Source of the DNA: Dictyostelium discoideum
Taxonomy: Eukaryota
Direction: 5' to 3'
Assembly (NCBI GenBank): GCA_000004695.1
Contig: CM000150.2
Coordinates: 3,200,001 to 3,264,000 of the forward strand
DNA: 64,000 bases
Below the pieces are notes generated by a model. The model saw only the letters and a program-made list of their open reading frames with translations. It ran no database searches and was not told the origin of the DNA. Made by a program: the position numbers and the translations under genes. Positions within the stretch are counted from its first letter, which is position 1; each line of letters opens with the position of its first letter. This document shows, in pieces, positions 9,615 to 12,770 of this stretch.

Positions 9615-11648
9615 ATGTTTCCATCTTATAATAATAACAACAACAACAACAATAATAATAGTAATGAAATGATTAGTACCATTCACCAATCAATTGGTCA
9701 TACTCTTTTAAATCAAGGTCATGGTTTAATTCAAAATAATATTAGTAATAATAATAATAATAATAATAATAATAATAATAATAATAATAATAATAATAAT
9801 AATAATAATAATAATAATAGCAATAATAATAGTAATAATAATAATAATATTGTTTCAAATGATTTATTTTATTTCGATAATTTAAATAATGCAATGATTC
9901 ATAATAATATGATCCAACAACAAATTGCACAACAACATTACCAACATTATTTAAATAATAATAATCCAATAATCGATAATAATAATAATATTAATAATAC
10001 TACTAATAATATTAATAATAATAATAACCACAATCACAACAACAACAACAACAACAACAATAATAATAATATCAACAACACAACCATTACACCAAATAAT
10101 GATATGATTGCTGCTCCTGTAGTTAAAAAGAGAGCCAAAAGAGCTTGCTTGAACTGTAGATCCTCAAAGGTTGCCTGTGATCATCAAAGACCATGTGTTC
10201 GTTGTACAAAGAATGGTACTGAAGATACTTGCCGAGATGTTCCAAGAAAACCAAAGGTTCCAACTAAAAGAATTAAAAAAGAACCAGTAACACCTGCTCA
10301 AAATGTCCCATTCGTTCAACAAAGTATTGCTCAAACCTTGAATATCCAAGGTTTACCATTCACTCCATCCTCATCACCATCAACACTCATTCAAACACAC
10401 CATCATCATCATCATCACCAACAACAACAACAACAACAACAACAACAACAACAACAACAACAACAACAACAACAACAACAACAACAACAACAACAACAAC
10501 AACAACAACAACAACAACAACAACAACAAATAGTACCAAGAACCAGTGGTCCTAAAAAATCAAAAGCCACCATTCTTAACACTTCATCATCATCACAACC
10601 ACTCACAACATTTGGAAATTCTACACAAGATCTTATTTCAATGGGTTTAATTGGAAATAATAATAATAATAATAACAACAACAATTTAGATAATAATTTA
10701 AATATTAATGCTGTTGCCAGTGTTCCAGCTGCCATCAATAATGCTTTTAAATTTGATGGATTTGGTGCTGCTACCAATAGTGGTGAATCCCCATTCTTCT
10801 TCAGTCAACCAAATACAACATCCACTAATAACTCAACCAATAGCAACAACACAATTACTACCACTACCACTAGCACTATCACAACAACCGCTACTCCTAT
10901 CTCATCAACCAGTGATGAATCATCAACCACAACAAAAAATACTGAAGGTGATTTACTTTCAAATATTACAAATTTGACATCATCATCACCAGCATCATCA
11001 CCAAATAGTCCTTCATCAGCATCATCAACACCACCATTAAATAATTACACTGATAATTCAAGTCCAAATAGTCCAGGTCATTTGCCATCAATCTTATCAG
11101 AAACATTATCAAAATCAACTGATGAGCTTATTGCCGTTGGTAATAGTAGTAGCAGTGGTAATAATAATAACCTTCAAAACTCTTTGGAGAATGTTTTCAA
11201 TAATCTCTCTACTCTTATCAATAATTCAACCACTTCGTTGCAAGATCCAATTAATGTCGGTTCTCCATCCACTCCATTTGGATGTTGTATGAAAAGTCCA
11301 TTTTCAATTGATGGTATCCCAGTAGAAGATCCTTCATCAACAAATTCTCAATTAATTACCTCACCAAATACTATTAAAAATATTGAAGATAATGAAAATA
11401 ACGGTATTTTAGAAATTGTTAAACATCAACAACAACAACAACTTCAACAACAACAGCAACAAGTTTTACCAAATATTTTAATGTCTGAATTAAAAAAGAT
11501 CCATCAATCATTAGAAAGAATTTCAACATTCTTGCAATTCCCAGCCAATGTACCAAGAGGTGTTTACAATCATGCTCCACGTCATCCATTGGTTCCAGGT
11601 TCTTTATTTGTACCACAAAATAATATTGAGACGGTAAATTATCTTTAA
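9615..11648 (+). CDS. Zn(II)2Cys6 (GAL4-type) binuclear-cluster transcription factor. This is the first exon or ORF, and it probably continues into the exons listed next.
   Basis: 677-aa ORF containing KRAKRACLNCRSSKVACDHQRPCVRCTKNGTEDTC. This is an exact C-x2-C-x6-C-x5-C-x2-C-x8-C motif preceded by a basic stretch. There are long poly-N, poly-Q and poly-H tracts and S/T-rich regions. The ORF ends ...NNIET followed by gtaaat, a donor-like sequence. Confidence 0.85.
   Translation: MFPSYNNNNNNNNNNSNEMISTIHQSIGHTLLNQGHGLIQNNISNNNNNNNNNNNNNNNNNNNNNNNNSNNNSNNNNNIVSNDLFYFDNLNNAMIHNNMIQQQIAQQHYQHYLNNNNPIIDNNNNINNTTNNINNNNNHNHNNNNNNNNNNNINNTTITPNNDMIAAPVVKKRAKRACLNCRSSKVACDHQRPCVRCTKNGTEDTCRDVPRKPKVPTKRIKKEPVTPAQNVPFVQQSIAQTLNIQGLPFTPSSSPSTLIQTHHHHHHHQQQQQQQQQQQQQQQQQQQQQQQQQQQQQQQQQQQQQIVPRTSGPKKSKATILNTSSSSQPLTTFGNSTQDLISMGLIGNNNNNNNNNNLDNNLNINAVASVPAAINNAFKFDGFGAATNSGESPFFFSQPNTTSTNNSTNSNNTITTTTTSTITTTATPISSTSDESSTTTKNTEGDLLSNITNLTSSSPASSPNSPSSASSTPPLNNYTDNSSPNSPGHLPSILSETLSKSTDELIAVGNSSSSGNNNNLQNSLENVFNNLSTLINNSTTSLQDPINVGSPSTPFGCCMKSPFSIDGIPVEDPSSTNSQLITSPNTIKNIEDNENNGILEIVKHQQQQQLQQQQQQVLPNILMSELKKIHQSLERISTFLQFPANVPRGVYNHAPRHPLVPGSLFVPQNNIETVNYL
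10418..10528 (+). repeat. (CAA)n trinucleotide repeat encoding a run of about 37 Gln inside the Zn2Cys6 gene.
   Basis: A perfect caa repeat about 110 bp long, in frame as poly-Q and preceded by a His7 run. Confidence 0.95.
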
Positions 11649-11956
11649 AAAAAAAACACCAAAATCCTTCCAAAAAAAAAAAAAAAAAAAAAAAAAAAAA
11701 AAAAAAAAAATATTATATGCCCATCCATAAAATTATATTTAGCCCCCTCCTTAATAATCCCTCTCCGAACCATGAAATAAATCATTTATTTTTTAATGTT
11801 TTTTTTTGTGTAACCCTACACAAAAATGACGATAAAAATAACATGTACAAAAAAAAAAAAAAAAAATATATATCCTAACACTTTTGGAATTTTTTTTATT
11901 TTTATTTTTATTCTCTTTTTAATAATAAATTAAAATATCTATCACCAATGTCACTC

Positions 11957-12097
11957 TCTCTGAAATTTGTAACAAATCTCTGAACCTTTTCATGTATCTC
12001 CCCTACTCCTCCCAATCTCTCTCAAAATCTGAAAATTGTAACGAATCTCTGACCCTTTTCATGTACCTCTCCCACCCTTCCCCAATCTCTCTATCTC
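11957..12097. repeat. C/T-rich ~70-bp tandem duplication (2 units) inside the proposed first intron of the Zn2Cys6 gene.
   Basis: Unit A (11957-12027) is ctctgaaatttgtaacaaatctctgaaccttttcatgtatctcccctactcctcccaatctctctcaaaat. Unit B (12028-12097) is ctgaaaattgtaacgaatctctgacccttttcatgtacctctcccacccttccccaatctctctatctc. Identity is about 85%, and the pyrimidine-rich composition is atypical for this genome. Confidence 0.8.
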
Positions 12098-12136
12098 ACT
12101 TCTCTCTTTCTCTCTATTTTTTTTATTTTTATATAG

Positions 12137-12770
12137 AAAATTACCAAACTTTTAGAATCTAGGCTGCCATTTGCTCAATTTAGTTTTCCAACCAAAGATT
12201 GTATTAATATAAATAATTCATTTTGTAGACTACTTGGATATGAAAAGTATGTACATGTTCCATTATCATTTTACTATTTATCTTATTAATCCATCTCTTT
12301 TTCAATTTTTTTTTTTTTTTTAAATCATTTTCTAATTCCTTATTTATTTATATCCAGTGTTAGTGAATTTTATCAAATTATGCCATTAGCAATATGGGAT
12401 GATTTTGTACATAAAAAAATAATTTGTTTTACGTATGTATTGATTTTTCTTAAAAAAAAAAAAAAAAAAAAACATTTTTGTTTTAACAAAAAAAAAAAAA
12501 AAAAAAAAAAAAAATAATAGGAATAGGTATGCCCTGGAGGCAATAGTCAAAAGAGTTTATAGATTTCAAAAACCATGTGTAATGAAAAAAAGAAATGGAA
12601 AATATATATCAGTTCATTTGTTTGTTGAATTTGTTCAAGATTTTTCATCATTCAAAGTTTATGTGATCAATCAATATACACCAGATTTAGATTCTGATTT
12701 GTCATCAGAATATATTTGTAGAGAGTTTTTATCAAAAAATTGTTGTTTAGCATTGGATGATATTATATAG
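12137..12770 (+). CDS. Proposed 3' exons of the Zn2Cys6 gene, encoding a PAS-like fold: 12137..12246, 12358..12432, 12520..12770.
   Basis: The exons are in frame with 9615..11632 if an intron 11633..12136 is removed (GTAAAT donor, TATATAG acceptor). Internal introns have GTATGT donors and TATCCAG/AATAATAG acceptors with consistent phases. The encoded sequence is KITKLLESRLPFAQFSFPTKDCININNSFCRLLGYEK|NVSEFYQIMPLAIWDDFVHKKIICFT|NRYALEAIVKRVYRFQKPCVMKKRNGKYISVHLFVEFVQD...YVINQYTPDL.... It has PAS-like spacing (F..D....I...N.a...LGY ... RKDG..I.V.... v....g.....ii...DIT). Confidence 0.45.

Follow-up and report, generated by a model that had tools for sequence, protein, structure and literature searches.

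A split annotation in Dictyostelium discoideum very probably conceals one gene for a zinc-cluster transcription factor with a C-terminal PAS domain

Positions 9615-12770 (+) of the window, by which we mean the whole stretch of 64,000 nucleotides (nt) of Dictyostelium discoideum DNA analysed here, very probably hold a single gene of four exons. As read from its sequence, this gene would encode a sequence-specific transcription factor of 817 amino acids (aa) and would merge two genes of the public annotation, DDB_G0270590 and DDB_G0270592. The predicted protein joins an N-terminal Zn(II)2Cys6 cluster to a C-terminal PAS domain. The analysis corrects the annotation and adds an amoebozoan instance to the Zn2Cys6-PAS design known from fungi; it does not point to a new kind of system.

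Gene structure

A previous sequence-only reading of this DNA had proposed that an open reading frame (ORF) of 677 aa is continued by three further exons into a PAS-like domain. The ORF is present at 9615-11648 in the ORF listing, with its terminal TAA at 11646-11648, and splice enumeration gave four exons that sum to 2454 nt and translate in frame, free of stops, into 817 aa. The introns of 503, 111 and 88 nt open with the donors GTAAAT, GTATGT and GTATGT and close with the acceptors TATAG, CCAG and AATAG; the in-frame joining with GT..AG borders thus stood as proposed, and all three junctions are corroborated by orthologues. The positions needed small corrections. Exons 12137-12246 and 12358-12432 had been placed exactly, but exon 4 starts at 12521 and not at 12520, and the GTAAAT donor begins at 11634 and not at 11633, where exon 1 ends. 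As had been noted, the first intron is unusually long, though at 503 and not 504 nt; its D. purpureum counterpart, of 336 nt, is long as well.

The frame of exon 2 is closed on its upstream side by a TAG at 12134-12136, itself part of the acceptor, and the exon has no in-frame ATG; it therefore needs an upstream exon. Fifteen donor/acceptor pairs keep the frame open, and only 11633/12137 retains the orthologue-conserved residues PGSLFVP..IET. The other 14 pairs were rejected, since each of them deletes conserved residues. The base composition of the window is 21% G+C, with coding tracts of poly-N and poly-Q. The coordinates of the gene, its parts and its surroundings are collected in Table 1.

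Table 1. Features of the proposed Zn2Cys6-PAS gene and its surroundings, in window coordinates
Feature	Coordinates	Strand	Description	Basis
Exon 1	9615..11633	+	aa 1-673; start codon, poly-N/poly-Q, zinc cluster, linker motifs; last codon ACG; phase-0 donor	ORF listing, splice enumeration, orthologue alignment
Zn(II)2Cys6 cluster	10140..10256	+	aa 176-214	Pfam PF00172 and four-species alignment
Linker motifs	11169..11543	+	aa ~519-567 NSLENVF..FGCCMKSPFSIDG; aa 617-643 VLPNILMSELKKIHQSLERISTFLQFP	blocks kept in full-length alignment of four dictyostelid proteins
Intron 1	11634..12136	+	503 nt, GTAAAT..TATAG, acceptor TATAG followed by A; opens with in-frame stop (VNYL-stop); A39 run 11672-11710	
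Exon 2	12137..12246	+	aa 674-709 and two bases of codon 710; PAS A-beta, B-beta, C-alpha (..PFAQFSFPTKDCININNSFCRLLGYE)	homologous to PAS N-terminal halves of orthologues
Intron 2	12247..12357	+	111 nt, GTATGT..CCAG; D. discoideum-specific among species examined	
Exon 3	12358..12432	+	last base of codon 710, aa 711-734, two bases of codon 735; holds ATG 12380, the DDB_G0270592 start	
Intron 3	12433..12520	+	88 nt, GTATGT..AATAG; D. purpureum intron at same site (L005 5051-5124)	junction already in public model XP_646140.1
Exon 4	12521..12770	+	aa 736-817, stop TAG 12768-12770; PAS F-alpha, strands G, H, I, C-terminal helix, tail CLALDDII	secondary structure transferred from AlphaFold model of C. 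fasciculata orthologue
Candidate promoter or 5' untranslated region (5'UTR) element	9337..9452	+	two conserved non-coding blocks, 9337-9377 and 9406-9452	
Mak16 (ribosomal L28e/Mak16) orthologue	6918-7528	+	flanks the locus	
TauE-family membrane protein gene	15079-16703	+	flanks the locus	

The public annotation

The 100-aa protein spliced from the ATG at 12380 (12380-12432 joined to 12521-12770) is exactly XP_646140.1 (Q55DJ1), the hypothetical protein DDB_G0270592 of D. discoideum AX4; the window accordingly belongs to chromosome 1 of this strain. Mapped onto the predicted structural model described below, this product starts (MPLAIWDD) inside the PAS fold, without strands A and B and helices C and D, and the public model consequently encodes half a domain. 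No exact entry for the 677-aa ORF, the 817-aa model or a model reading through from exon 1 into exon 2 exists in the protein collection. From the adjacent gene number and a published orthologue table we infer that the upstream ORF is DDB_G0270590, a ‘Gal4-like’ factor.

Three deeply conserved GAL4-domain genes have been described in Dictyostelia (Forbes et al. 2019, PMC6873476). The same authors place DDB_G0270590 among the ‘Gal4-like’ factors and give DLA_03420, PPL_05483 and DFA_07960 as its orthologues, with none in D. purpureum. PPL_05483 corresponds to the H. album protein P0006, and DLAC_03419, a PAS fragment of T. lacteum, neighbours DLA_03420. Neither PMC6873476 nor its supplements mention PAS, and the literature search turned up neither a paper on an amoebozoan Zn2Cys6-PAS protein nor anything relevant under the gene identifiers.

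The split was probably caused by the unusual length of intron 1 together with its in-frame stop and the following A39 run, which mimic the end of a gene. These same features could be taken at face value, as the normal-looking end (the stop comes four codons into the intron) of a 677-aa zinc-cluster protein terminating at the TAA of 11646-11648, with DDB_G0270592 as a separate 100-aa gene starting at ATG 12380; a public model for the latter exists, and the annotations of T. lacteum and D. purpureum are split likewise. We consider two separate genes extremely improbable. Exon 2 is conserved coding sequence that has no start codon and is closed upstream in its frame, the 100-aa product would lack the first half of the PAS fold, both parts belong to one protein in four species, and the T. 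lacteum PAS frame continues upstream of its annotated ATG up to an acceptor. The split annotations are best explained as one prediction error repeated.

Orthologues and comparative gene structure

A search with the de-repeated protein retrieved proteins of 855 aa in C. fasciculata (P0002), 452 aa in Synstelium polycarpum (P0003) and 608 aa in P. violaceum (P0004). A profile search with HMMER, run exhaustively over 1.84 billion proteins, further yielded proteins of Acytostelium subglobosum (P0005, 786 aa), Heterostelium album (P0006, 687 aa), T. lacteum (P0007, 125 aa) and D. purpureum (P0008, a partial sequence of 99 aa), together with two metagenomic proteins and transcripts of Physarum. A word-index protein search with the spliced C-terminus gave no match, missing even the identical 100-aa entry, a cluster representative in the same collection, and its alignment version gave three proteins; it also missed the upstream D. 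discoideum protein, and its negatives for this organism are untrustworthy.

An N-terminal Zn_clus domain and a C-terminal PAS-type domain occur in one chain in C. fasciculata, S. polycarpum, A. subglobosum and H. album, and one of the metagenomic proteins (P0019, 329 aa) also carries both. The Physarum transcripts have the same PAS-type domain; the fragments seen do not include the zinc cluster. The annotated dictyostelid proteins (the ‘transcriptional regulatory protein’ of C. fasciculata, PPL_05483 of H. album, XP_012757615.1 of A. subglobosum and P012600 of S. polycarpum) are true orthologues that share with the D. discoideum protein the zinc cluster (KKRAKRACLNCRSSKVACD.QRPC.RC.K.G), the linker motifs, the PAS domain and the CL.LDDI tail. 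Compared with them, the D. discoideum gene has two more introns within the PAS region, a much longer first intron (503 nt, against 181 nt in C. fasciculata), a 7-aa insertion (KLLESRL) also found in D. purpureum, and long poly-N/poly-Q tracts, and it differs further in being publicly split into two genes.

The D. purpureum gene could be reconstructed on GL871219.1 (L005) from three exons, 2988-4526, 4863-5050 and 5125-5374, which together encode 658 aa. The first of these is a 513-aa ORF whose zinc cluster is nearly identical and whose end, ..NQEIES, directly precedes GTAAATTATCTTTAAAAAA. It has no public gene call and lies in an unannotated stretch between Mak16 and the 99-aa fragment, which explains the absence of a D. 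purpureum orthologue from the list of Forbes et al. After the 336-nt intron 1, the second exon (KIHLLLTKFDLPFAQFSFPTKDLVSINDSFCRLIGYENVEELYQESPLIIWDDVVHRQIIPF) corresponds to D. discoideum exons 2 and 3 without interruption, and this uninterrupted coding sequence validates the E/N junction at D. discoideum intron 2. The spliced D. discoideum C-terminus is 76% identical to the D. purpureum genomic translation over 135 aa (E 4e-80), and this gap-free match confirms junctions 2 and 3. The same sequence matches T. lacteum DNA with E 2.4e-36; as sequence similarities, both matches are far beyond chance.

In C. fasciculata (L002) the sole intron (5158-5338, 181 nt) follows ..PCLES/GTAAAC in phase 0, the slash marking the exon border. 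T. lacteum (LODT01000016.1, L004) has the same ..PCLES/GTAAAC, an intron of ~157 nt (~4797-4953) and a PAS exon starting VKFNPPFSRWQF, upstream of the ATG of the 125-aa model. There too the public annotation of the gene (L004 2770-5378) is split, into a 686-aa zinc-cluster model that runs through the donor into the intron and a 125-aa ‘PAS domain-containing protein’ that starts at an internal Met. The D. discoideum border, ..NNIET/GTAAAT, is likewise in phase 0, and the position after (L/I)E(S/T) is common to C. fasciculata, T. lacteum and D. purpureum. Intron 1 is thus an old intron, conserved in position, whose length has increased in group 4. In T. lacteum and D. purpureum the gene lies, as here, between Mak16 and the TauE-family gene, in the same order.

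A Logan contig from a dictyostelid (L003, SRR20046440_27357, 34% G+C) reads ..PGNLWMPCLE, TAA and then the PAS part IRKLIPYSRWEFPGRN.. at 1020-1070, with no intron. Its two halves are offset by one base in an A-run at GAA/ATAAG, and one added A would restore ..PCLEIRKLIPYSRW..; the offset may be either a homopolymer error or a real frameshift, or the contig may represent a spliced transcript. Metagenome scans returned nothing for PAS patterns; for zinc-cluster patterns they returned a single contig, similar to P. violaceum, along with ordinary fungal factors that lack PAS.

The PAS domain

The identification of the C-terminal ~140 aa as a PAS fold (about aa 685-790), followed by a helix and the CLALDDII tail, is supported by profile and by predicted structure. 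The PAS-like motifs on which the sequence-only reading relied were partly right: KRNGKYISVHLF is present, but ‘LGYEK’ came from read-through into an intron, the spliced sequence being LGYEN. In the search of 1.84 billion proteins the family profile matched bacterial sensor kinases with 3-8 Pfam PAS domains at E 1.6e-9 to 8.5e-4, values that are summed over several PAS repeats, and 15 of the 15 non-family matches scanned were bacterial multi-PAS sensors. Matches to Pfam models were found below threshold: PAS_3 in 8 of 10 family members and PAS_8 in 6 of 10, with E 0.14 for the D. discoideum matches to PAS_3, PAS_9 and PAS_8. The proposed PAS-like domain is hence borne out by the family profile, which matches PAS kinases and other multi-PAS sensors, and by the PAS topology of the predicted structure, but no Pfam PAS model rises above its gathering score.

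The structure was predicted with AlphaFold2 from the C-terminal 160 aa of the C. fasciculata protein and a 13-row alignment that included the D. discoideum exon pieces. The model has a mean predicted local distance difference test score (pLDDT) of 80.5, a predicted template modelling score of 0.71 and a core with pLDDT >90. Its elements run in the order N-cap helix, two strands, four helices, three strands and C-terminal helix, which is the beta-beta-alpha4-beta3 order of PAS. Among PDB structures, Foldseek picked out LOV and PAS domains, the best at E 2.2e-5 with probability 1.00, and a sequence profile search of the PDB gave no meaningful match. A LOV photoreceptor was rejected even though LOV structures rank high in Foldseek, as the flavin-binding GXNCRFLQ cysteine motif is absent from the ten-member alignment.

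Absence of that motif, Pfam scores under threshold and the apparent lack of the domain at the P. violaceum locus also bear on whether the domain acts as a sensor at all. It could be a mere structural or dimerization fold without ligand, or a decaying remnant in D. discoideum. Either would be very unlikely in our judgement: D. discoideum and D. purpureum share 76% identity in this domain, without gaps or stops across three exons, and the domain is kept out to Physarum, a conservation that argues for purifying selection. Moreover, PAS domains that chiefly dimerize are still functional regulatory modules (PMC12719309).

Zinc cluster and linker

The Zn_clus match (PF00172) at aa 176-214 scores 27.6 bits against a gathering cut-off of 21 (E 3.2e-6), and those of the orthologues score 26.7-30.9 bits. 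Cysteines 178, 181, 188, 194, 197 and 206 are spaced CX2CX6CX5CX2CX8C, which fits the family pattern CX2CX6CX5-12CX2CX6-8C, and all six are invariant in the four-species alignment. Outside the two domains, in a protein with a long low-complexity linker, the conserved features are aa 519-567, aa 617-643 and the CLALDDII tail.

Strength of the gene model

Several points weigh against the reading as one Zn2Cys6-PAS gene. The D. discoideum splice junctions are drawn from sequence and orthologue comparison and not from RNA, and an intron of 503 nt is long for the D. discoideum genome. The upstream ORF is equated with DDB_G0270590 by adjacent gene number and orthologue table, and DNA binding by the zinc cluster is a prediction, made from its sequence. 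Pfam PAS gathering scores are not reached, the best being 12.9 bits in D. discoideum, 16.6 in C. fasciculata and at most 21.2 in any family member, for cut-offs of 21.8-27, and the structure was modelled on the C. fasciculata orthologue, which is 44% identical, and not on the D. discoideum sequence.

A further point against it comes from P. violaceum (L001 5303-10369) and a P. violaceum-like metagenome contig (L006, Ga0256895_1007384), in which the orthologous ORF ends in ..NLWTPCLE, exactly at the conserved intron site, and is followed by a donor or a stop. PAS exons were not found by tblastn over the 5 kb downstream in P. violaceum, nor by a hidden Markov model search of L006, a contig that extends only ~350 nt beyond the ORF. 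The domain may have been lost at these loci, or its exon may lie farther away or be missing through misassembly.

Intron 1 and a possible short isoform

The 3' part of intron 1 holds a tandem duplication at 11959-12092 (+), with 1.9 copies and an 86% match according to Tandem Repeats Finder and a repeat finder. A C/T-rich 70-bp duplication had been noted before; the duplication and its C-rich character are real (40% G+C and 34% C, against 18-20% G+C in the rest of the intron), but the period is 69 bp. The core of the unit, CTGAAATTTGTAACAAATCTCTG, loosely resembles a single copy, CTCAAATTTGTGCCGAACCTCTC, in the D. purpureum intron (L005 ~4770-4800), both lying in a C/T-rich tract before the acceptor; the significance of this resemblance is doubtful. 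The intron interiors of the two species are weakly similar (z 5.2, a value inflated by poly-A). A role of intron 1 as host of an RNA gene or a mobile element was rejected: there is no Rfam match, the folding z against shuffles is 0.0, neither the intron nor its tandem duplication has a second copy in the window, and the intron has no long ORF.

At the border of exon 1 and intron 1, 20 nt (GGTAAATTATCTTTAAAAAA; window 11631-11650, L005 4524-4545) are identical in D. discoideum and D. purpureum, the in-frame stop included. This identity, the unusual length of intron 1 in both group-4 species (503 and 336 nt) and AATAAA-like strings read from the sequence inside the intron allow speculation that two products are made, the full-length Zn2Cys6-PAS protein and a PAS-less 677-aa isoform ending VNYL-stop, through retention of intron 1 or polyadenylation within it. 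Such a short form might act as a constitutive or dominant-negative DNA-binding form. We regard the production of both as decidedly unlikely. The proposal derives from sequence and not from transcripts; the immediate stop is not kept in T. lacteum (VNYHKNAYLNN-stop) or in C. fasciculata, at 21% G+C chance alone would be expected to produce AATAAA strings, and 20 identical AT-rich bases beside a splice donor may reflect splicing constraints only.

Upstream element and window context

Two conserved non-coding blocks precede the gene, and their local alignment between D. discoideum and D. purpureum reaches z = 17.7 over shuffles. The core of the element, ATCGAGTT[CT]TC..TTCTTTCTCTCTCG, is invariant upstream of the orthologous gene in five dictyostelid species that span the major groups, and the second block, GAAAGTTTTAATGT, with an upstream ATG, is found in four of the five. 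The element lies ~165-700 nt 5' of the start codon, with copies at ~2700-2796 in D. purpureum (L005), ~3059-3148 in P. violaceum (L001), ~2413-2450 in T. lacteum (L004) and ~2260-2308 in C. fasciculata (L002). Neither a conserved RNA structure nor an Rfam family was found for it, and a coding role was rejected on account of a 1-nt indel. As judged from its sequence, the element may be a promoter, a pyrimidine-rich 5'UTR or an upstream-ORF control site.

Elsewhere in the window, tRNA-Thr(AGT) at 22819-22890 (+) and tRNA-Ile(AAT) at 56805-56877 (-) were the sole Rfam and ARAGORN matches.

Comparison with ERT1/AcuK and bHLH-PAS factors

Members of the fungal ERT1/AcuK family (Rds2, Ert1, Gsm1, AcuK, AcuM, Aod2, Aod5) have an N-terminal Zn2Cys6 cluster and a single C-terminal PAS domain, form dimers of the AcuK/AcuM type in which PAS is hypothesized to mediate dimerization, and control gluconeogenesis and alternative oxidase (PMC12719309). 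The equation of a Zn2Cys6 cluster plus PAS with the ERT1/Rds2/AcuK architecture agrees with that description. The D. discoideum protein has the same domain order, with a long linker, as S. cerevisiae Ert1, Rds2 and Gsm1, Aspergillus AcuK/AcuM, Neurospora Aod2/Aod5 and Cryptococcus Pas2. It also shares the PAS core motif N..FC.L.G (NPEFCELVG in Pas2, NNSFCRLLG in D. discoideum), a motif generic to PAS. A further likely point in common is the use of PAS as a regulatory or dimerization module on a growth-phase or metabolic regulator.

Resemblance in design is therefore clear; membership in the family is not. The ERT1/AcuK-specific Pfam model PAS_13 (PF24990), unlike the generic PAS_3, PAS_8 and PAS_9, was matched by none of the ten amoebozoan family members at E<=10, although HMMER filters drop most matches above ~0.1, so that this negative means E > ~0.1. 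In the exhaustive profile search no fungal relative came up at E<0.001, nor did any protein with a zinc cluster and a PAS_13-type PAS. The same search gave one orthologue group per dictyostelid, leaving no obvious heterodimer partner of the AcuK/AcuM type; the protein might pair with itself or with an unrelated partner. It is because of these three results that membership is not clear. Of the earlier claim of an amoebozoan member of this architecture, the N-terminal Zn2Cys6 and single C-terminal PAS hold, but with PAS_13 unmatched homology to the fungal family is not demonstrated. Clusters of the Rds2 type also have the spacing CX2CX6CX5CX2CX8C, which is a lead only; no relevant printed ERT1-type cluster sequences were found in the literature.

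The bHLH-PAS factors (HIF, ARNT, AhR, NPAS, CLOCK) likewise couple a DNA-binding domain to PAS. They differ in having bHLH in place of the zinc cluster, and PAS-A plus PAS-B in place of one PAS, and no sequence relationship to the D. discoideum protein is detectable beyond the PAS superfamily.

Biological significance

The gene has been classed as ‘down after growth’, as growth-specific among mature cell types and as ‘down or flat’ in cysts (PMC6873476, supplementary file 4). We infer a role in growing (feeding) cells, since expression in growing cells that goes down in development speaks more for a nutritional or metabolic regulator than for a developmental one. In a plausible mechanism, the zinc cluster would bind DNA and the PAS domain would be a regulatory module gating the activity of the factor. 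By analogy with AcuK/AcuM, for which this has been proposed, and with bHLH-PAS factors, such gating might proceed through dimerization and/or small-molecule or redox sensing.

A bolder scenario is that the eumycetozoan (Dictyostelia and Physarum) Zn2Cys6-PAS regulators are orthologous to fungal ERT1/AcuK, that the D. discoideum gene controls a growth-phase metabolic programme, and that the 30-nt upstream element and the upstream ATG are part of nutrient-dependent control. We hold this combination to be unlikely; were the orthology true, a zinc-cluster/PAS switch for carbon or respiratory metabolism would predate the split between Amoebozoa and Opisthokonta or would have been exchanged between them.

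For the reference annotation of this model organism, the analysis means that DDB_G0270590 and DDB_G0270592 should be merged, and the same correction is needed in D. purpureum, whose first exon is unannotated, and in T. lacteum, whose gene is split. Social amoebae have only three deeply conserved zinc-cluster factors, and one of them would then carry a PAS domain; the pairing of Zn2Cys6 with PAS has until now been discussed for fungal metabolic regulators alone, and their zinc cluster is often termed fungus-specific. The gene thereby becomes a concrete, testable candidate through which growing amoebae might control transcription in response to nutrients or redox state, and it offers an outgroup for tracing where the fungal ERT1/AcuK family came from.

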